A program made the position numbers and the translations under genes. Below are positions 5,960 to 55,766 of a stretch of DNA of 64,000 nucleotides, piece by piece. The stretch covers positions 160,001 through 224,000 of the forward strand of contig CAXXVD010000002.1 in the NCBI GenBank assembly GCA_963662335.2. Reading direction: 5' to 3'. The notes below the pieces were generated by a model. The model saw only the letters and a list, made by a program, of their open reading frames with translations, was not told the DNA's origin and did not search any database. The DNA comes from Chloroflexota bacterium. GTDB lineage: Bacteria > Chloroflexota > UBA11872 > VXOZ01. Each line of letters begins with the position of its first letter. The first letter of the stretch is position 1.

Positions 5960-6048
5960 CGCGGGAGCGATGCTTACCCCGTCAGGAGTCTCAGAACGTC
6001 ATTCCGAGCGCAGCGAGGAATCTAGGACCGTACCGTAACCAAGATCTC

Positions 6049-6414
6049 TCAGAATATGTCGCTTAATTTCTTACCGGAGTAGAAGACATTGACGACGACG
6101 ATCGCCGCCCAGACGAGGCCAACTCCCAAGACTCCGGCGCCGCCCTCGAGCACGATCCCCGTTGCCGGGATCGCGAAGATGAGCGAGCAAATGGGCACGG
6201 CGGGTGACACGCTTTTCGGTTTGACGTTCTGCAGGCGCGCTTCCACGCGGCGGTCGATCACGGCGTCGAGGCGCTCCATGAGCATGTCGGTCAACTCCTC
6301 GTTGTATTCCGCGCCGAGTTCCTGCCGCGCTGAGAGGATAGCGTCCAGTTCCTCCCGGGCGCCCTCCGCTTTTCCGCGCTCTTCTTTGCTTTGCCCTGCT
6401 ACGCTGCTGCTCAT
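6049..6414 (-). CDS. Small hypothetical membrane protein (paralog 1)
   Basis: 121 aa; charged helical N-half and two C-terminal hydrophobic helices; AGGA RBS; closely similar to 6541-6906. Confidence 0.8.
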   Translation of the reverse strand: MSSSVAGQSKEERGKAEGAREELDAILSARQELGAEYNEELTDMLMERLDAVIDRRVEARLQNVKPKSVSPAVPICSLIFAIPATGIVLEGGAGVLGVGLVWAAIVVVNVFYSGKKLSDIF

Positions 6415-6540: not shown

Positions 6541-6906
6541 CTAGAAGATGTCGCCAATCTTCTTGCCGGAATAGAGGATATTGACGATGATCAAGGCGGC
6601 CCAGACGACGGCCACGCCCCGGAAGCCGAGCATACTCGCCGCGATCGCGGTCAAGGGAATCGCGAAGACAAGCGAACAAATCGGCACGGCGGGCGAAAGA
6701 GAGGCGGGTTTCGAGTCTTTCTGCAGGCGGGCCTCCACGCGGCGGTCGATGACGGCGTCCAGGCGCTCCATCAGCTTGTCGGCCAGTTCGTCGTTGTACT
6801 CCGCGCCGAGTTCCTGCCGCGCCGAGAGGATGGCGTCCAATTCTTCGCGGGCGCCGTCGGCTTCCCGCCGCTCTTCTTTACCGTGTTCCGCCTCGCTGCT
6901 GCTCAT
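6541..6906 (-). CDS. Small hypothetical membrane protein (paralog 2)
   Basis: 121 aa; shares GAREELDAILSARQELGAEYN..L...LMERLDAVIDRRVEARLQ with 6049-6414. Confidence 0.8.
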   Translation of the reverse strand: MSSSEAEHGKEERREADGAREELDAILSARQELGAEYNDELADKLMERLDAVIDRRVEARLQKDSKPASLSPAVPICSLVFAIPLTAIAASMLGFRGVAVVWAALIIVNILYSGKKIGDIF

Positions 6907-21412: not shown

Positions 21413-21781
21413 GTGACAGTATTCGACACGCACAAGGCATTTGTAACGTTCACGGGCGCGGGATTTTCCGCTGAGCAGGCCCAGGCGTTGCTCGATGCGG
21501 GGCAAGAGGGTAGCGAAGCGCTGGCAACCAAGGCCGACCTGAAAGCGCAGGAGACGGCACTGCGCAGTGAAATGCAAGCGATGGAAAGGGCACTGCGGAA
21601 CGACTTGCAGGCAGTCGAGACCTCATTGAATAGTGAGATTCAAACTCTTAGGGCGGAGAGTAAGACCGACCTGCGTGACTTGGAGCAACGCATGACGATT
21701 CGGTTAGGCGCAATGCTCTTTACCGCGATAGGCTTGCAGGTTGCAGTTCTCGGACTTCTGCTCGTGTTGATTGCGCGCTAG
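21413..21781 (+). CDS. DUF1640/CCDC90-like coiled-coil protein with C-terminal membrane anchor
   Basis: FDTH head, GF..EQA, ATKADL, coiled coil, MTIRLGAML + TM helix; GGAGG RBS. Confidence 0.8.
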   Translation: MTVFDTHKAFVTFTGAGFSAEQAQALLDAGQEGSEALATKADLKAQETALRSEMQAMERALRNDLQAVETSLNSEIQTLRAESKTDLRDLEQRMTIRLGAMLFTAIGLQVAVLGLLLVLIAR

Positions 21782-38907: not shown

Positions 38908-39351
38908 TCAGCGGAAGAGCACGATCAGGACGGCAAGGACACTGTTCGCCCCCACGACAAGCGCGCCAAGCCGCAGCGTCAAGCGCAGTTCCAAGTCTTT
39001 CATGTCGGCCTTGTGCGTTTGCGCCAGCGCTTCCAACCGCACTTCAACGTGCTGGAGGCGCAATTCCATCGCTCGCATTTCTGTTTGCGTTTTCTGGGCA
39101 AGGTCTTGGATTTCGGCTTGGGTCTTTTGCTCGAGGACCCGCAAATCGTCTTTGGTTGCAAACTCCCGCAAGTCGTCCTTGGTTGCAAGTTCCCGTAAGT
39201 CGTCCTTGGTGGCAAGTTCCCGCAAGTCGCCTTTGGTCGCAAGATCCTCGTGCGACTCGCCAACCGCGTCGACCACGGCCTCAGCCTTTGCTTCTTCGAA
39301 GCCGGCCGCCGTGAGGACCTTCACCGCCCTATGGGTATCGAATATCGCCAT
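38908..39351 (-). CDS. DUF1640/CCDC90-like coiled-coil protein with ATKDDLREL repeats
   Basis: FDTH head, GF.E.KAEA, four 9-aa repeats, LTLRLG + TM helix; GAGG RBS. Confidence 0.8.
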   Translation of the reverse strand: MAIFDTHRAVKVLTAAGFEEAKAEAVVDAVGESHEDLATKGDLRELATKDDLRELATKDDLREFATKDDLRVLEQKTQAEIQDLAQKTQTEMRAMELRLQHVEVRLEALAQTHKADMKDLELRLTLRLGALVVGANSVLAVLIVLFR

Positions 39352-45729: not shown

Positions 45730-46209
45730 CTATTGCTCAATGCTAGGCGCGGGCACATCGCTGGGATCCACGCGAATGCGTACGTCAGGGATAATCTCCT
45801 GCGGCTTGAAAATCACCCGGTAGTGATACTCGCTTACGTCTGCCGCGTCTACTTGCTCCGCGACATAGGTAACGTTATCGGAAAGGCCGAGGAAGTGCTT
45901 CTTGTACGCATTCTCGCCGGTCTTGCACGTCACCTCGAGTTGCCCGCGTGCGCGCCCTCCCGAACCCCAGTCTTCATGGATTGAGCAGCGCCCCTCGATG
46001 ACCAGCATAAAGCTGTCCGTGATGCCATTGTAGAACACGATGCGGCGCTCTATCTCGAAGTTGTCGGCGGCAGTCGAGAGGTTGCGGGATGCGGTGGTAG
46101 CGGCGCTAGAGCATGCCACCAATAGCAAGAGTGCAATCGTCGTTAGCCCTAGTTCCAGCTTTGGCACGCGCCTCTTTCCCTTTCGCTCCGATGACCGTTT
46201 CTCCGCCAC
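45730..46209 (-). CDS. Lipoprotein of a family usually seen in phages/prophages
   Basis: Lipobox LVAC; ASRNLS.AADNFEI.RRIVFYNGITD, EGRCSI, YKKHFLGLSDNVTY, HYRVIFKP. Start uncertain. Confidence 0.7.
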   Translation of the reverse strand: MAEKRSSERKGKRRVPKLELGLTTIALLLLVACSSAATTASRNLSTAADNFEIERRIVFYNGITDSFMLVIEGRCSIHEDWGSGGRARGQLEVTCKTGENAYKKHFLGLSDNVTYVAEQVDAADVSEYHYRVIFKPQEIIPDVRIRVDPSDVPAPSIEQ

Positions 46210-49611: not shown

Positions 49612-50784
49612 ATGGCTACGACAAAGCTGCTAACCGACGACGCGCGCCGCATCGCCCTCTACTGGCTGGCGGAAGCCGTGCCAAACTGTCAGTCCCAAGG
49701 CGTATCGGTCGGGCTGCCGGAGTGGGACGATCGGCTGCGGGTGTGGCGCGTCGCCATCATCGCGGCTGACGCTCCCGACCGTCCTTTGGGTGAGGTGCGC
49801 GTCGACTCGGCCGGCGCTATTTGCTTCAATTCCCCGCCTGAGATAGTCACGCAGCGATTGCGGGAATCCCGGAAATCGAAACGGAAAGCAAACCCCAAGA
49901 AGAGCAGCGCCCCGATTGCCTTTGCCCCCATTCCAAACAAGGTAATTCTGGGTGATTGCCGCACCGTGTTGGATGGGTTTCCGCCGGATAGCGTTCAGCT
50001 TGTCTTTACGTCGCCGCCATACCTCAATGCCAAGCCCGAATACTCGGAATACGTGGATTACCGCTCGTACCTCGACTTCCTTGGGGAAGCATTCGCCGCG
50101 TGCCACAGCGTACTCTCCGAAGGCAGGTTTCTGGTAGTCAACGTTTCGCCCGTGTTGCTGAAGCGAACCTCGCGCAGCACCGCCAGCAAGCGCCTGCCGA
50201 TACCCTTTGACCTGCATCCCATTCTGGACGGCATCGGCTTCGAATTCATCGACGACATCATCTGGCGCAAGCCGGAGGGCGCCGGCTGGCATCTTGGCAG
50301 AGGCAGAAGATTCGCCGCCGACCGGCAGCCATTGCAGTACAAGCCCGTGACGGTCACCGAAAACGTCTTGGTCTACCGCAAGCGGACGTCCCGCCTCATC
50401 GACTGGAACCTGCGCAATCATCCGGACCCGGGCCAGGTAGATCGCTCCCGCATTCTGGGTGAATATGACCGGACGAACGTGTGGGACATCACGCCGGCAA
50501 GCCATGCCGCCCACCCGGCGGTCTTTCCCGATGAGCTTGCGCGGCGCGTCATACGCTACTACTCATTCGAAGGCGACAGCGTCTTGGACCCGTTCGCGGG
50601 CATCGGCACCGTGGGCCGCGCGGCGTCCCAGTTGGCAAGACGATTCGTGCTCATTGAAAAACGCAGCGACTACTTCGAAATCATCAGGCAGGAGTTGGGC
50701 GCAACGTCTATGTTTGGGTCCCAGGCGGATTTTGACGACCTGGAGTACTTCTGGAGCGCGGATCATGGCCCCGGAACTCTATAA
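49612..50784 (+). CDS. N4-cytosine DNA methyltransferase, M.CfrBI-like (beta class)
   Basis: TSPPY, GRGRRFAADR.PLQYK, HPAVFP, LDPFAGIGT motifs. Confidence 0.88.
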   Translation: MATTKLLTDDARRIALYWLAEAVPNCQSQGVSVGLPEWDDRLRVWRVAIIAADAPDRPLGEVRVDSAGAICFNSPPEIVTQRLRESRKSKRKANPKKSSAPIAFAPIPNKVILGDCRTVLDGFPPDSVQLVFTSPPYLNAKPEYSEYVDYRSYLDFLGEAFAACHSVLSEGRFLVVNVSPVLLKRTSRSTASKRLPIPFDLHPILDGIGFEFIDDIIWRKPEGAGWHLGRGRRFAADRQPLQYKPVTVTENVLVYRKRTSRLIDWNLRNHPDPGQVDRSRILGEYDRTNVWDITPASHAAHPAVFPDELARRVIRYYSFEGDSVLDPFAGIGTVGRAASQLARRFVLIEKRSDYFEIIRQELGATSMFGSQADFDDLEYFWSADHGPGTL

Positions 50785-51649
50785 CTTGAACGCGCCGGAG
50801 GGCCTGCGCGCTATTGTCACGGCTCTGTTTTGCGGCTATAACTACCGGCTTTACACCGAAGGCGAGACTCGTCACGTCCTGCTGGAAACCTACAGCGAGT
50901 TGAACGCCATTCGGCAGCGCCTCCCCGCCCACGCCGGCTACGACGAGTGGTTAGAGGCCGTTGCGGACGAACTGGATAAGAACCCGGGTTCTCTGGGGTG
51001 GTGGCTGGTTGGCTTGACGAACAAGACGGCCAACAACCTGGGTTTGCAGCGGAGCGATCGCCTGGACTACCTGGCGGAAGTACTTGCGCACATTCGCTCT
51101 TTCGTTGCGGATTCCGCCGCTCCGCACTCTTTCTCCGATGCCGTAGTCATGCTGTGGGCCGGGGCCGCCACGCTCACCATTCGCGGTTCGCGGAAATCGA
51201 GGCTTGGCAAAATCCTCGAAGGCTCATTCTTGCGCGCCGGCCTTAGCTTGCTGGGACTGCGTGAAGGGGAAGACTTTTGGCTCAATATGCAGCGGGATGC
51301 GGAGGTCCTGCGCGAAGTCGATGCGGAAATCGCCAGCCGCCGCGGGCGCATTAGGGTAGAAGTGGGGCTGATCGAACGCGGGAATCAGGAAGTCATCGAA
51401 GACAAAATCAACCGCGTTGGGCGCGGCGGCATCGTTATATTCGACCAGATCGGCCCCCGCTCCACCATCCACGGCACGGCCGCGGCGCAGCAGGTGTGTC
51501 TCATACAAATCAGAAACAGCCGCCCTCTGTCGGCGCTGCACGATTATCTAGCGGACAAGACAGAGAAAGCCGTCAACGAGCCTCCGGCGGACACGGCAGA
51601 CATTGAAACTGCCGTGAGCGCGTTGCCGGATGCCCTTTTCACAGCATAG
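50765..51649 (+). CDS. Type II restriction endonuclease, CfrBI-family-like
   Basis: TLTIRGS.KS..GK..E, RE.DA, EVGLIERGN.E..EDK motifs; overlaps the 3' end of the methyltransferase. Confidence 0.72.
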   Translation: MAPELYNLNAPEGLRAIVTALFCGYNYRLYTEGETRHVLLETYSELNAIRQRLPAHAGYDEWLEAVADELDKNPGSLGWWLVGLTNKTANNLGLQRSDRLDYLAEVLAHIRSFVADSAAPHSFSDAVVMLWAGAATLTIRGSRKSRLGKILEGSFLRAGLSLLGLREGEDFWLNMQRDAEVLREVDAEIASRRGRIRVEVGLIERGNQEVIEDKINRVGRGGIVIFDQIGPRSTIHGTAAAQQVCLIQIRNSRPLSALHDYLADKTEKAVNEPPADTADIETAVSALPDALFTA

Positions 51650-51661
51650 CGAGGGACTTTC

Positions 51662-52453
51662 GTGATCTTCGATGCCCACTGCTATCTCGGCCACAATCCT
51701 ATTTGGGAAGTCCAGGGCTTGCCCGCCACCATGCGGGGCGCGGACATGATTGGCTACATGGAGCGCGGCGGGGTAGCGCGGGCGTTGTGCGCGCCGCCGG
51801 GGGCGGGAACCGGCGACCACTTCGCCGCCGACCACGAGCGCATCGCGCAGGCGATTGCCGATTATCCAAACCGCATCTACGGCTGCGCGCGCGTCAAGCC
51901 CACGCGGGGGGCAATCGCCGTTGACGAAATGCGCCACTGGCTGCAAGAGCGCGGCTTCCGCGCGGTCAAGTTCAACACCGTCGACGCCTCCCTCGGCGGC
52001 ACGGGCACGTACCCGCTCGCCGACCGGGCGCTCATGGGGCCGGTCTTGGAAGCCATCGCGCCGCTTAACGCGCCGGTCATGATCCACACCGGCGAGGAAC
52101 ACGGCCACACCTGCACCCCGGCGCTGGTGGCCGACCTGGCCCTGGACTTCCCCCGCGTCACCTTCATCATGGCCCACGCCGGCGTGCCGGGCTTCCAGCA
52201 CGAGGTCATCCCGTTCATGCGGCGCGCGCCGAATACGGTGGCCGACCTGGCCGGCGTGCTGCGCCCCAGCATCGTGCAGAGCCTGGTGGACGGCGTCGGC
52301 GCCGAGCGCGTCCTCAACGCCACCAACGCCCCCCACATGCCCATCGAGTTCGGCCCCCAACTCATCCAACGCCACTGCCGCAAGCTCACCGCCGCGCAAA
52401 GAGAGCTTATTCTATGGGGGAATGCAATGCGATTGCTGCGCGTGGCTAGGTAG
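51662..52453 (+). CDS. Amidohydrolase_2 family metal-dependent hydrolase
   Basis: FDAHC, GFRAVK, IHTG, AHAG, ILWGNA.RLL motifs. Confidence 0.85.
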   Translation: MIFDAHCYLGHNPIWEVQGLPATMRGADMIGYMERGGVARALCAPPGAGTGDHFAADHERIAQAIADYPNRIYGCARVKPTRGAIAVDEMRHWLQERGFRAVKFNTVDASLGGTGTYPLADRALMGPVLEAIAPLNAPVMIHTGEEHGHTCTPALVADLALDFPRVTFIMAHAGVPGFQHEVIPFMRRAPNTVADLAGVLRPSIVQSLVDGVGAERVLNATNAPHMPIEFGPQLIQRHCRKLTAAQRELILWGNAMRLLRVAR

Positions 52454-54980
52454 ACGGGTGTCGCTCCAATAAAAAGAGGAGGCGACGACCGTCCACCAGT
52501 TCGACCCGGCTATTCTGCACTTCTCGCTGCGCATCCTTTGAAAACGTCCCATTGGTCACTACGACCGCGTTCGTGGCATCCGGTGTATTGCTGAGAACAC
52601 CGGCAAGTTGACGTACAACTGGTACACCAACGACACTTTCGCCCTTGGTATGCTTGCATTGGATAAGTCGCTTCTCCCGAGCCCCAATCATCTGTCGCTC
52701 TGCGACAACATCCACGCCTCCGTCACGACTATCGCGGGTCTTGTCTGCCCGATAGCCCATTCGCTGATAGAGCCGAGCAACGAGTTCCTCAAATTCATAT
52801 GGACTAAGCCCCCGGAGTCTTCGTTGGTCCCAAGTACCCGACCAAGAGAGTTGGTGTGGCGCGCTCGTGCCTCTGTCATTCCCGCGCAAGCGGGAATCCA
52901 TCTTCTCTTGGCGGGCATACTGATCCGGTAGCGGCAGATCCAATGCCTCAATCAAATCCTCCAAGGTGAGGCTCTCTTCAACCTTCTCGTGCACCTTACT
53001 AGGGTCATCCACATACGCCTGAAAGAGCGCCTTTTTCTCTTGGAGTTTCTGATATATCCATTGCTCAACAGTGTTGAGGGTGAAGAGTGATGTAAAGAAG
53101 ACATCCTTCTCTTGGTTCTTGCGGAGCGCACGTCCTAACGCTTGCTTGTGCGTAGCTGGATTCCACCAGTGATCGAAAAGAACAACATGGTTTGCTACCT
53201 GCAGGTTAAGGCCAACACCTCCAGCTTTAAGTCCCATCAACAGAACCCTGTAACGAGAGTCATGTTCAAACAGTTTCAGCAACTCCTCACGCCTTCTGGT
53301 GCTAAGCCCGCCATGGTAAGTGTCCAATACTGGGAAGTCGTTCTGCAGTCTATCCTTGAGATCCGGAAGAGAGACGTTCGGGTATTGCGAGAACACCAAT
53401 ATCTTGTCTTCAGGCGCAATCTCACGGAGGTGCTCGACCAGAAAGTCTGCCTTTGCACTGCTGCCCGTCTCCGGGTCAAAGTTACAAAGTTGCTTCAGTT
53501 TCTGAATTAGCGCAAGTAAGTGCACTCGCGCCCTATTCTCATCTACTTCACCAAGCACCCGCTGCGCCTCGGAGCGAGAAGCATCATATGCACTCCTGTA
53601 GGCTCTGCCCTGTTCGGGTGTGAGTTCCAACCACCGCTCAACCTCAACAGGCTCTGGGAGATCAAGGACGCCTATCTGCCGCCGCAGCATGACAGGTTGC
53701 ATGAGCTTCTCCTTCTGCTCAGGAGTGAGCCAGTGCTCCCAGCGGGGCAACGCGGCGACAATCGCCTTGACCTGCGCCTTCGTCAATGCGTCGACGGCGA
53801 TAAGGCGCAGAATGCTAATCAGATCATCGATTTTGGTTTCAAGAGGCGTCCCGGTTAGCGCCCAACACCGTTTACGCGGCAAACCGTGCAGCGCCCCTGT
53901 TGTCTTTGCTCCGGGGTTCTTGACTTTCGCAGCTTCATCTAAAATGACGAGGTCGAATTCCGCCAACTGCTGTACAGCCGCCAGGTCCCCTCTTAGCGTC
54001 TCATACGAAACAATCCACACGTGCGCCGGCGCATTCCACTGTTGCTGCCTCTGCACCTTAGGCCCTTCGACCACCTGAATTCGCACTTCGCGCTGCGCCC
54101 AAAGTTCCCACTCTCTTAGCCAGTTTCGAAGTAAAGACTTTGGCGCAACAACCAAGACTCGGGTAACAACTGCCTTTCGGAATAGGAGGCGCGCCGCCAC
54201 GATTGCTTGCGCAGTCTTGCCCAGACCCATTTCATCCGCTAGCAACGCGCCACGCCGCTCCACAAGGAATTGAATGCCCTGAAACTGATGCGGCATGAGC
54301 GGCTCATCGCTGGGGAGTGGGAATATGCCCTTAAGGGTCTTTGGGTCAAGCGGCGGCTGCAAGTAGAGCCACAGGAGTTCAAGCAGGTCCGCTATTGAAA
54401 CACCTCTCTCACTTTTCGGCAGTTTCTTCTGCTTGGCGGCCCGTTCACGGCGGCAGGAGTCACAGGCACCCCGTGGCAAGCCGTGCTTGCAGGCGCCAGA
54501 AGCGATGACTGCTCCCGTGGGAAGTAAGGGAGGGTGATCTTCAAGAGCATCGTCGGAGTCCGTTCTCCCGTATACTCTTGGTCTAGCGCCCAAGAGATCG
54601 GTCATGTCCCAGATGATTGGAAGTGCAAATGTAGTAACATTCAGAAGGGCTGCAAGCGCATCGCAAACTTCAACGTCCATCCCTATGTCCACGTCAAAGT
54701 GCAGCGCACTCGCTACACCGAAGTGTGCTGGAACCCTGTGGACGCTTGCGCCCGCCAAAGTCAGATCGTCGCTGCTGTTAGGCGTCACCAGCAGTGGGAA
54801 ATCTACTGCCTGCGAGGAGTGTGGCTCCAACTTTCGCGCGGTGTGGTGGGGAAAGACCGTGTAGACTTTGTCCAACGCACTGGGAGCAAGACCAGCGTCA
54901 AGCCGTTCAACCTCTCGTACCGGCGGCACTGAGAACGGCGCAGCCCGTTTAGCGGCATTGAGGCGAAGACTTCCCAACAA
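52446..54980 (-). CDS. SNF2-family helicase fused to C-terminal Mrr-like restriction endonuclease domain
   Basis: LADEMGLGKT, LDEAA, LTGTP, GGVGLNL, WWNPA...QALGRA; then LSPYEFEELVA, DGGVDV, IQCKH, VVTNG.FS. N-terminal CKH..CxxC. Confidence 0.9.
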   Translation of the reverse strand: MLGSLRLNAAKRAAPFSVPPVREVERLDAGLAPSALDKVYTVFPHHTARKLEPHSSQAVDFPLLVTPNSSDDLTLAGASVHRVPAHFGVASALHFDVDIGMDVEVCDALAALLNVTTFALPIIWDMTDLLGARPRVYGRTDSDDALEDHPPLLPTGAVIASGACKHGLPRGACDSCRRERAAKQKKLPKSERGVSIADLLELLWLYLQPPLDPKTLKGIFPLPSDEPLMPHQFQGIQFLVERRGALLADEMGLGKTAQAIVAARLLFRKAVVTRVLVVAPKSLLRNWLREWELWAQREVRIQVVEGPKVQRQQQWNAPAHVWIVSYETLRGDLAAVQQLAEFDLVILDEAAKVKNPGAKTTGALHGLPRKRCWALTGTPLETKIDDLISILRLIAVDALTKAQVKAIVAALPRWEHWLTPEQKEKLMQPVMLRRQIGVLDLPEPVEVERWLELTPEQGRAYRSAYDASRSEAQRVLGEVDENRARVHLLALIQKLKQLCNFDPETGSSAKADFLVEHLREIAPEDKILVFSQYPNVSLPDLKDRLQNDFPVLDTYHGGLSTRRREELLKLFEHDSRYRVLLMGLKAGGVGLNLQVANHVVLFDHWWNPATHKQALGRALRKNQEKDVFFTSLFTLNTVEQWIYQKLQEKKALFQAYVDDPSKVHEKVEESLTLEDLIEALDLPLPDQYARQEKMDSRLRGNDRGTSAPHQLSWSGTWDQRRLRGLSPYEFEELVARLYQRMGYRADKTRDSRDGGVDVVAERQMIGAREKRLIQCKHTKGESVVGVPVVRQLAGVLSNTPDATNAVVVTNGTFSKDAQREVQNSRVELVDGRRLLFLLERHPST

Positions 54981-54994
54981 AGCAACTCTCCCTG

Positions 54995-55543
54995 TTAGCG
55001 AAAGCGTTCGTCCTGAATCTGTAGCACGTCCACTGCATTCTTGATCCGTTGAAATGGCTCCAAGAGATCAAGGCTATCACCTAGGTGTCGAATGAATTCT
55101 GCCGCTTCACGAGCGTCTTCCGTGTATTGAGGATCAGTCTCCAGTGATACCGGTTGAGTTCGCTTCGACTCTACCGAGACGCCGGACGATTCACCGCCGA
55201 CCGAGAGTGTTTCACCGACCCGGCGGAGAAATATGACAGGGCAGTTGTCCGCATCCCGCAACTCTACGAGAAAGGGTTTGTCAACTAAGTATATCTCCGG
55301 ATTGGCTTCGACCTGGCCCAACAGCGGCCTACCGATTATGTCAATTCCAATGTGGGGTTCAAGCGAATCTCCATAGAGCACACGCTGCACCTGCGAGGGC
55401 TTCACGGGCTCCGTCACGCGGAACTCCTGCGGCACGCCCCGTTCATCCGTAATGAGCACCGCACCCAATCTCCCTCCTTCTTTGTTGATGGTGAGCAGCG
55501 TAAGAAATCCTATCGCTAGCTCTCGCCCATTCCCGTCAGCCAT
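54995..55543 (-). CDS. Conserved hypothetical protein, operonic with the SNF2-Mrr gene
   Basis: AAGGAG RBS; 14-bp gap to SNF2; motifs G.VLITD..G.P.EF..T.PVKP...Q..LYG..L and DLLEPF.RI. Confidence 0.75.
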   Translation of the reverse strand: MADGNGRELAIGFLTLLTINKEGGRLGAVLITDERGVPQEFRVTEPVKPSQVQRVLYGDSLEPHIGIDIIGRPLLGQVEANPEIYLVDKPFLVELRDADNCPVIFLRRVGETLSVGGESSGVSVESKRTQPVSLETDPQYTEDAREAAEFIRHLGDSLDLLEPFQRIKNAVDVLQIQDERFR

Positions 55544-55766
55544 CAGTATTCTCCTTTTAGACGTTCACAACTACCGTAACGGTAAAGTATTCAGGGACTG
55601 GCAAGCAAGCACACCGAATTGCTAGTTTGTCCGTCTTGCCAACTGTTCAGTTCGCAGCGTAGGGTAAAGATGGATTCCGGCTTTCGCCGGAATGACGAAC
55701 AGGCTGCAGCGAGTACCAATTGACGTAAATGACGACTTTGCCAGGATGGTTGCGGCAAGAGCAGAC

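Follow-up and report, generated by a model that had tools for sequence, protein, structure and literature searches.

Do two neighbouring genes of a Chloroflexota bacterium, one of which codes for a helicase fused to a restriction-type nuclease, constitute an undescribed defence module, as an earlier note on this DNA had proposed? The genes are located on the minus strand of a stretch of 64,000 nucleotides (nt), hereafter the window (positions 160,001 to 224,000 of contig CAXXVD010000002.1, assembly GCA_963662335.2). An open reading frame (ORF) of 182 amino acids (aa) with an ATG start, designated here as the partner (55543-54995), is followed after a gap of 14 nt by an ORF of 844 aa with a TTG start (54980-52446), which encodes an SNF2 ATPase with an Mrr-type nuclease domain (SNF2-Mrr). 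The reading to which we give an even chance is that the pair is a two-subunit DNA translocase with a pseudo-nuclease targeting the motor, the window copy being an acquired, armed and defensive form of it.

The two genes are tightly linked and each is provided with a ribosome-binding site, as described previously: both ORFs are preceded by Shine-Dalgarno-like sites (AGGAG and GGGAG), and the TTG start of SNF2-Mrr is supported by its three closest relatives, which start at the same residue. The zinc motif, the full SNF2 ATPase and the intact Mrr nuclease attributed to the 844-aa protein were also found with all their residues. Pfam domains SNF2-rel_dom (residues 231-500), Helicase_C (510-621) and Mrr_cat (723-835) were recognized; the ATPase motifs are intact (Walker A K255, Walker B D348-E349, motif VI R617 and R620), the best solved relative of the SNF2 core being 1z63 (E 1e-47), and the Mrr-type restriction endonuclease domain (52476..52814, minus strand; Mrr_cat E 5.9e-30) retains E731, D757, Q774 and K776. 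The N-terminal part consists of a Pro-rich arm, residues 1-163 (54492..54980, minus strand), and of a putative zinc knuckle CxHG-x5-CxxC, that is CKH-x6-CxxC in the earlier notation, C164-C176 (54453..54491, minus strand). The arm has no Pfam family at E 0.5 and obtained a predicted local distance difference test score (pLDDT) below 50 when folded alone from a 21-row alignment; it may be regarded as a candidate partner-binding region. Of the 24 best N-terminal homologues, which were picked using that region as the query, 23 have the knuckle; among the 67 SNF2 proteins of the GTDB loci described below it was found in only 2, both from Chloroflexota.

Linkage of the two genes was analyzed in GTDB genomes scanned with a degenerate pattern for the core of the partner family, which yielded at least 120 loci, 80 of them with flanks; this sample is motif-biased and incomplete, and all 120 loci matched the partner-family profile. 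In 67 of the 80 flanked loci, covering at least six phyla and for the most part planctomycete, the partner is followed by an SNF2 gene of the same strand, in line with the association with this SNF2 subfamily pointed out earlier, for example for Planctomycetes. Two of the linked loci contain a small ORF between the two genes (gaps of 713 and 808 nt). Among the 13 unlinked ones, 8 end at a contig edge within 1127 nt; in the other 5, no SNF2 gene is present although the downstream sequence extends over at least 6.5 kb. Distances in the partner and SNF2 trees are correlated (r 0.74 for 66 pairs, 0/999 permutations as high), shared host ancestry contributing to this value. Modelling of the complex lends weak support to binding of the partner to the SNF2 protein: the score was 0.47 (runs 0.00, 0.59 and 0.47) vs 0.02 in the best control, with partner pLDDT of at least 72. 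This mark was reached by 116/157 solved complexes and 2/215 mismatched pairs; in the range up to 0.60 it was reached by only 18/157 solved complexes and by both mismatches.

The partner matched no family in Pfam, PADLOC, NCBIfam or PDB sequences, either singly or as a profile, and its matches in the ESM Atlas were only unnamed Planctomycetota-rich clusters; the family comprises 1402 representatives at 50% identity. An AlphaFold2 model built from 146 sequences (pLDDT 93.4) had endonuclease V (EndoV) as its top Foldseek matches (E 3e-5), and the RNase H/EndoV-like fold surmised in the earlier note was thereby confirmed. Structural comparison with EndoV of B. subtilis gave a VIA Z-score of 13.1 and a root-mean-square deviation of 3.5 over 166 aligned residues; EndoV matches overall had Z 11-13, with PIWI, NurA-like and UvrC RNase H domains ranking below (Z 8.7-9.3). 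None of the 146 family members matched the Pfam EndoV family at E 0.1, and the profile alignment to E. coli Nfi is weak (probability 6%). In this alignment, D88 of the partner falls on Nfi D103 and K168 on D206, the conserved E162-P-F-x-R166 falls on the EPTR motif of Nfi, and the KP-x-x-x-V-D strand is aligned as well. The catalytic set of Nfi, D/E/D/(D or H), comprises D35, E82, D103 and D206. Position 88 of the partner is D in 28/146 members; the counterpart of D35, set by structural range and by eye, is T15, with S/T/A/G in most members, and the register of E82 is ambiguous. Judging from the weak alignment and the structural ranges, the counterparts of D35 and D206 hold no conserved acid, and no partner clade possesses the full EndoV catalytic set; the family consensus also lacks the PYIP wedge motif of EndoV. 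Judging from these residues, the partner is probably a catalytically inactive pseudo-nuclease. Its net charge is acidic in every clade (mean -4 to -10).

The 67 linked loci comprise 50 copies of a Planctomycetia clade, 7 Ignavibacteria-like and 10 sporadic ones; neither the SNF2 tree nor the motif table includes L003 with a truncated gene or L024 with a broken gene. Sporadic copies come from Chloroflexota, Cyanobacteriota, Spirosoma and Brocadiia, and from single bins of Pirellulales and Acidobacteriota. Their SNF2 proteins carry an intact Mrr domain at the C-terminus in 4 cases (L055, L059, L063, L073), a split Mrr in L064, a PNP domain matching PADLOC effector models in L026, a helical region in L048 and none in two, one gene being broken. 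Content of G and C at third codon positions (GC3) of the sporadic SNF2 genes is below that of their neighbours in 8/8 measurable loci (median -0.125). Defence- or toxin-antitoxin-type neighbours were found in 6/10 sporadic loci on the basis of Pfam and PADLOC matches, with classes assigned by hand: a type I methyltransferase directly downstream; AbiEii with a weak EVE match; HEPN-MNT; YhcG with PLD-SNF2; SocA/Panacea; Uma2 with an MkoA-like helicase. The window copy has the traits of the sporadic copies, with a restriction-modification (R-M) pair nearby. The AT-richer codon usage reported for it relative to the host genes is reflected in GC3 values of 0.58 and 0.59, the two lowest among 38 selected ORFs of at least 150 aa, most of which have 0.80-0.90. 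In the SNF2 tree, the window copy and its closest relative are sister to the Planctomycetia clade (SH-aLRT 91, unstarred); in the partner tree, the window partner groups with Chloroflexota copies, and a partner relative at 82% identity is labelled Chloroflexota. In the Fischerella locus (L026:8440-11904), the gene of the PNP-bearing SNF2 lies between an upstream SocA/Panacea antitoxin gene and a downstream gene for a 184-aa membrane-like protein, an arrangement that looks like a signalling-type conflict system.

The Planctomycetia SNF2 proteins have near-intact ATPase motifs (Walker B is DD in L057, and the L034 gene is frameshifted); their tree largely tracks the host orders, and their GC3 deviates from the neighbours by +0.04 (n=48), as in native genes. 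In the Ignavibacteria-like SNF2 proteins, the ATPase motifs are lost in 7/7, and the C-terminus is degenerate and nuclease-sized; the respective partners are strongly conserved and sit on short branches. A clade of SNF2-less partners (support 99) includes genes adjacent to fliA in L001, L061 and L099 and a gene within the fliR-flhB-flhA-flhF cluster in L071; the context of L046 (Fusobacteriales) is non-flagellar, and L029 is cut. An adjacent SNF2 is also missing at two Thermoguttaceae loci. As the trees have no outgroup, the direction of change between defence and housekeeping is not inferable from them. Proteins of 219 and 291 aa belonging to no known family are encoded 3' of SNF2-less partners, in or beside flagellar operons (L071:7920-9112 and L061:164-1566); they showed no tblastn similarity to other loci, so that their likeness to the SNF2 arm is a mere impression. 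Encoded divergently just 5' of the partner is a conserved helical protein (about 155 aa), for which Pfam gave no convincing match; it was seen in 22 loci, namely L058 (7184-7663) and 21 other Planctomycetia loci, mostly of Pirellulales. L002 is a contig binned as Alcaligenaceae whose pair is of the Gemmatales type, the partner forming the end of an ORF of 777 aa; mis-binning or fusion may be the cause.

How are these genes expressed? A motif search upstream of the Planctomycetia partners returned T(A/C)AAGTC, and a CCGAT box 15-16 nt further down emerged unselected. The strict bipartite form T(A/C)AAG(T/C)(C/T)-N15/16-CGAT occurs in 50 of the 81 upstream regions of the Planctomycetia group (79 titled Planctomycetota plus L002 and L018), with 0 on the antisense strand, a mean of 0.41 (maximum 3) in shuffled sequences, and 0 in the 36 other loci, the window included; elsewhere in the 784,074 nt of the same loci it was met 43 times. 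The pattern was fitted to the sequences in which it was counted, and is in roughly hundredfold excess. It is similar to the FliA promoters of E. coli and the SigD promoters of C. difficile as tabulated in PMC4183435 (Table 2) and PMC3865298 (Table 3), its spacer of 15-16 nt being 1-2 nt longer than that of the E. coli flgK site (14 nt), and is likely, by this resemblance, a sigma28-like promoter. Another site, sigma54-like by comparison with the sigma54 consensus, is present in 9/13 Ignavibacteria-group loci vs a mean of 0.06 in shuffled sequences; two of these nine are near-identical. A related form is given in PMC3847290. The window operon contains neither the sigma28-like nor the sigma54-like motif, strict or loose (best matrix score 5.1 vs at least 14.2 in true sites).

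The palindrome with 6-bp arms pointed out previously upstream of the operon is indeed present (55572..55584, 29-41 nt 5' of the partner ATG); it does not stand out from chance, with 133 perfect 6-bp-arm palindromes with spacers of 0-3 nt in the window, or about one per 480 nt, and it is probably a chance occurrence. Upstream of 117 homologues, no shared dyad clearly above shuffles was detected (best 7/79 vs shuffle maximum 6); neither a LexA-like dyad nor the 55572-55584 palindrome was found in the homologues as a conserved upstream element. A host palindromic repeat, not mentioned in the earlier note, lies in frame within the helicase-Mrr linker (52875..52900), one of 8 matches to the repeat-family pattern in the window; the other copies are near 5998, 7201, 26415, 34031, 43091, 55671 and 57512, and the linker repeat and the copy at 55667-55696 show 90% complementarity along a length of 30 nt. 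The translated repeat resembles the palindromic elements in coding sequences known from other bacteria. It varies in copy number and sequence among the four closest relatives, and the insertions are frame-preserving in all five close relatives. SNF2-Mrr has foreign codon use, yet it has been in the lineage long enough to acquire host repeats.

Planctopirus limnophila is amenable to genetic work; it has no FtsZ-based division, and many of its essential genes lack an assigned function. Fig. S3 of the transposon-directed insertion-site sequencing study of this species, described in its text as showing essential genes, lists Plim_0367, Plim_0368 and Plim_0369, annotated as unknown function, SNF2 and PAPS reductase (PMC10632474). 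The gene order in locus L065 matches that of the Plim genes (an APP1/COG4850 gene, an unknown gene, the partner, SNF2 and a convergent PAPS reductase), and the insertion-index denominators seen in that source (1133, 2210, 509, 2024 and 791) equal the L065 gene spans, three of them directly and two via an alternative start codon, with 2024 being one of several allowed multiples. Since a protein search with Planctomycetales partners showed no entry named for Planctopirus among the 120 matches listed out of 2815, the Plim genes were identified by synteny and gene length, not by sequence; on these grounds, Plim_0367 (1 insertion) is taken as the partner and Plim_0368 (12 insertions) as the SNF2 gene. 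The three genes with few insertions lie in a single run of 3.4 kb, Plim_0366 (0.154) and Plim_0370 (0.039) being well hit; insertions in the partner are possibly polar on SNF2. The eggNOG row of Plim_0367 reads Planctomycetia 0.9, Thermotogae 0.76, Synergistia 0.33 and Aquificae 0.23 (PMC10632474). The essential list also includes sigma54 and the COG1191 sigma factor Plim_1142 (index 0.0013), which is known as a COG1191/sigma28-family factor and not established as FliA; as presented there, the list is large, amounting to 17.8% of genes with the flagellar P-ring gene among them (PMC10632474). The joint presence of Plim_3539 (a second SNF2), Plim_1142, Plim_0695 (sigma54) and Plim_1168 (P-ring) in the essential figure is unusual for bacteria.

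How might the two proteins act together? The EndoV-fold pseudo-nuclease would bind the SNF2 protein, probably via the unstructured N-terminal arm, and would steer it to places where a nucleic acid is distorted, for instance a bubble, a mismatch, a branch or an RNA-DNA hybrid, if the partner recognizes distorted duplex by analogy with EndoV. The SNF2 ATPase would then move along duplex DNA, and the exchangeable C-terminal domain would determine the output. In the window, ATP-driven translocation would license cutting by Mrr, most likely of DNA from an invading phage or plasmid, by way of restriction or of abortive infection; whether the window copy cuts foreign DNA at all is for us a finely balanced matter. 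In Planctomycetia, the same core without a nuclease would perform a native and apparently essential job. The description as a defence module is plausible for the nuclease-bearing low-GC window copy and fails as a general one, 50/67 copies being nuclease-free, native and in housekeeping context; defence cannot be the sole role of the whole family. The neighbourhood survey suggested earlier had a similarly divided outcome, with co-occurrence in 67/80 loci and defence-type neighbours in 6/10 sporadic ones on the one hand, and housekeeping neighbours in Planctomycetia on the other.

A number of results weigh against a defensive translocase guided by a pseudo-nuclease. The 50 nuclease-free copies of the Planctomycetia clade make up most of the linked set. 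Their surroundings look ordinary: of the 152 de-duplicated nearest neighbours, mostly from Planctomycetia loci, 133 were scanned and proved to be metabolic or housekeeping, with 8 PADLOC matches, all to generic folds (kinase, FtsH/AAA, ABC, UvrD and SAM methyltransferase). Even among the sporadic loci, 4/10 have no defence-specific neighbour, the classes being hand-assigned, and the window copy itself lies outside any defence island, its direct neighbours being an amidohydrolase and an FAD oxidoreductase. Tblastn with the partner revealed no match among 72,556 plasmids and 50,697 phages, and the SNF2 search at E 1e-60 no match in plasmids. As to the complex, one of the three runs gave 0.00, no interface was returned, and contact agreement is at least 0%. 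The residue register relative to EndoV rests on the 6%-probability profile alignment and on structural ranges, and positions 68 and 88 are acidic in 58/58 and 47/58 Planctomycetia partners, respectively, due to which residual metal binding by the partner is possible.

As the chief alternative, the pair would be a housekeeping remodeller of chromosome or transcription everywhere, tied to a sigma28/sigma54 (flagellar, cell-cycle) programme. The partner would then be the adaptor by which a promoter complex, an R-loop or a transcription bubble is engaged, and the Mrr domain of the window copy would be a repair-type incision domain or an accessory; we consider this explanation possible and rather doubtful. 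It draws on the sigma28-like motif in 50/81 Planctomycetia-group loci and the sigma54-like site in 9/13 Ignavibacteria-group loci, on the SNF2-less partners adjoining fliA or flhA (L001, L061, L071, L099), on the SNF2 tree of Planctomycetia largely tracking host orders, and on the presence of Plim_0367, Plim_0368, the COG1191 sigma factor Plim_1142 and sigma54 in the essential-gene figure. However, the window copy lacks either promoter motif and has foreign codon use, the Planctomycetia spacer is 1-2 nt longer than that of E. coli, and the SNF2-less partner of Fusobacteriales (L046) has a non-flagellar context. Besides, the grade to which the window copy belongs varies its C-terminus (nuclease, PNP, helical), as is typical of conflict systems, and both PNP and Mrr are named as effectors in PMC7159879. 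An addiction or toxin-antitoxin pair, with SNF2-Mrr as the toxic nuclease and the partner as an inhibitor that infection or loss would release, seems unlikely. The small gene upstream of a large enzyme, the acidic partner compatible with DNA mimicry or blocking, and the essential score of Plim_0367 in the figure would agree with it; yet Plim_0368, the would-be toxin, scores essential there too, and the partner is conserved in Ignavibacteria despite loss of ATPase and nuclease in 7/7 and stands without SNF2 in 5 loci. Because both genes score essential and the partner persists beside dead or absent SNF2s, the antitoxin role fits poorly. Least probable of all, and very much so, is that the genes, linked only incidentally, represent a decaying passenger or an orphan part of a known ZorD-like or type IV Mrr system. 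ZorD1 is the best PADLOC match, the host repeat resides inside the gene, and the L024, L034 and L064 copies look frameshifted; against this stand the NCBIfam ZorD score of 148 vs 1500, the lack of any Zor model among 190 neighbours and repeat insertions preserving the frame in five close relatives, and the partner-SNF2 linkage over at least six phyla makes an orphan or decaying ZorD a poor fit, largely refuting this reading.

Returning to the two-subunit translocase, a broader version of it would have one core spanning immunity and an essential cell-cycle function: an essential, sigma28-controlled remodeller with a pseudo-EndoV targeting subunit in budding Planctomycetia, perhaps coupling the state of chromosome or transcription to the flagellated-daughter programme; a sigma54-controlled ATPase-dead scaffold in Ignavibacteria; and an effector-swapping anti-phage system elsewhere, the window included. 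This version is put forward only tentatively. The main interest lies in one module occurring in both defence-like mobile and native, apparently essential, alternative-sigma-controlled forms. Two uncharacterised genes scoring essential in Planctopirus limnophila are hereby provided with a fold, with a partner and with a sigma factor that likely controls them, and the role of essential planctomycete-restricted genes and of bacterial SNF2s beyond RapA becomes directly testable. The window, in turn, offers a candidate anti-phage module absent from PADLOC 2.0, NCBIfam and Pfam.

The R-M pair indicated earlier as being one gene away was located beyond an amidohydrolase gene, which separates it from SNF2-Mrr. 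This type II pair (49612..51649, plus strand; library matches), which belongs to the context and not to the module, consists of a methyltransferase at 49612-50784 (PADLOC 365.6 bits) and a CfrBI-like restriction endonuclease at 50768-51649, with GC3 of 0.75 and 0.72. No R-M-type neighbour cluster recurs among the 90 largest clusters listed for the 80 loci. CCWWGG, the CfrBI site, occurs 67 times in the window vs 65.7 expected; in the absence of depletion, its count is uninformative on R-M activity. No Rfam family and no tRNA were found in the window, and so no integration site was identified. The SNF2-Mrr gene and the convergent amidohydrolase gene share 8 nt at their 3' ends (52446-52453), and the minus strand has a predicted terminator-like hairpin at 52497-52481, within the coding end of the former. 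Farther away, a 159-aa gene (45730-46209, GC3 0.71) with a match to Pfam Phage_VG64 (E 1.6e-51) sits between rpsO and secA, with no further phage genes seen close by. The window also contains a tandem pair of paralogous 121-aa ORFs (6052-6414 and 6544-6906) and dispersed coiled-coil-like ORFs at 21413-21778 and 38911-39351, whose N-termini are alike.

Does the pair correspond to a system already named? It is below every named-system cut-off tested (PADLOC, NCBIfam), which agrees with the earlier opinion. No published description of the pair was found in a search that covered few subscription papers, and the portions of PMC7159879, PMC3710099, PMC11958385 and PMC12283558 at hand do not mention it. 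The closest likeness is with ZorD of type I Zorya, which also combines an SNF2 ATPase with a C-terminal Mrr-like nuclease: ZorD1 was the best PADLOC match (218 bits, residues 228-842, E 4e-65). However, the NCBIfam score of the window protein, 148.4, is one tenth of the cut-off of 1500; the window operon lacks zorA, zorB and zorC, and no Zor model was found among 190 scanned neighbours with the best 5 matches listed per protein; the N-terminus of the window SNF2 consists of the unstructured arm and the zinc knuckle, and the protein is paired with an EndoV-fold one. With type IV restriction enzymes of the Mrr family it shares the catalytic domain with the D...QxK signature, but it has no match to the Mrr N-terminal domain and is fused to SNF2. 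The partner, in turn, shares its fold with EndoV, the DUF99-like protein 2qh9 and the UvrC RNase H domain; it differs from EndoV in being linked to SNF2, in having no Pfam EndoV match and in lacking the conserved catalytic Asp positions.

The theme of an RNase H-fold sensor, a superfamily 2 helicase and a restriction-type nuclease is common to the pair and pPIWI-RE, and PIWI domains are second-tier fold matches to the partner (Z 9.3). The partner, though, is nearer to EndoV and, with its 182 aa, too small for a MID domain, and the helicase is SNF2 here, not DinG. SNF2-family motors are used in defence by DISARM (DrmD), BREX (BrxHI/II), Dpd (DpdE) and Hachiman-type systems (HmaA); the window SNF2 scores far below the NCBIfam cut-offs for DrmD (82.8 vs 950) and DpdE (61.3 vs 500), and none of the partner genes of these systems is near the window pair. 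RapA/HepA, SsoRad54-like and SWIM-SNF2 translocases possess the same double-stranded DNA translocase core, but the window SNF2 obtains 64.3 bits vs the RapA/HepA cut-off of 576, and neither it nor the partner has a SWIM match; unlike all three, this module has a dedicated EndoV-fold partner and alternative-sigma promoters. The pair is a real module that apparently has no name, a variant of helicase-nuclease systems.

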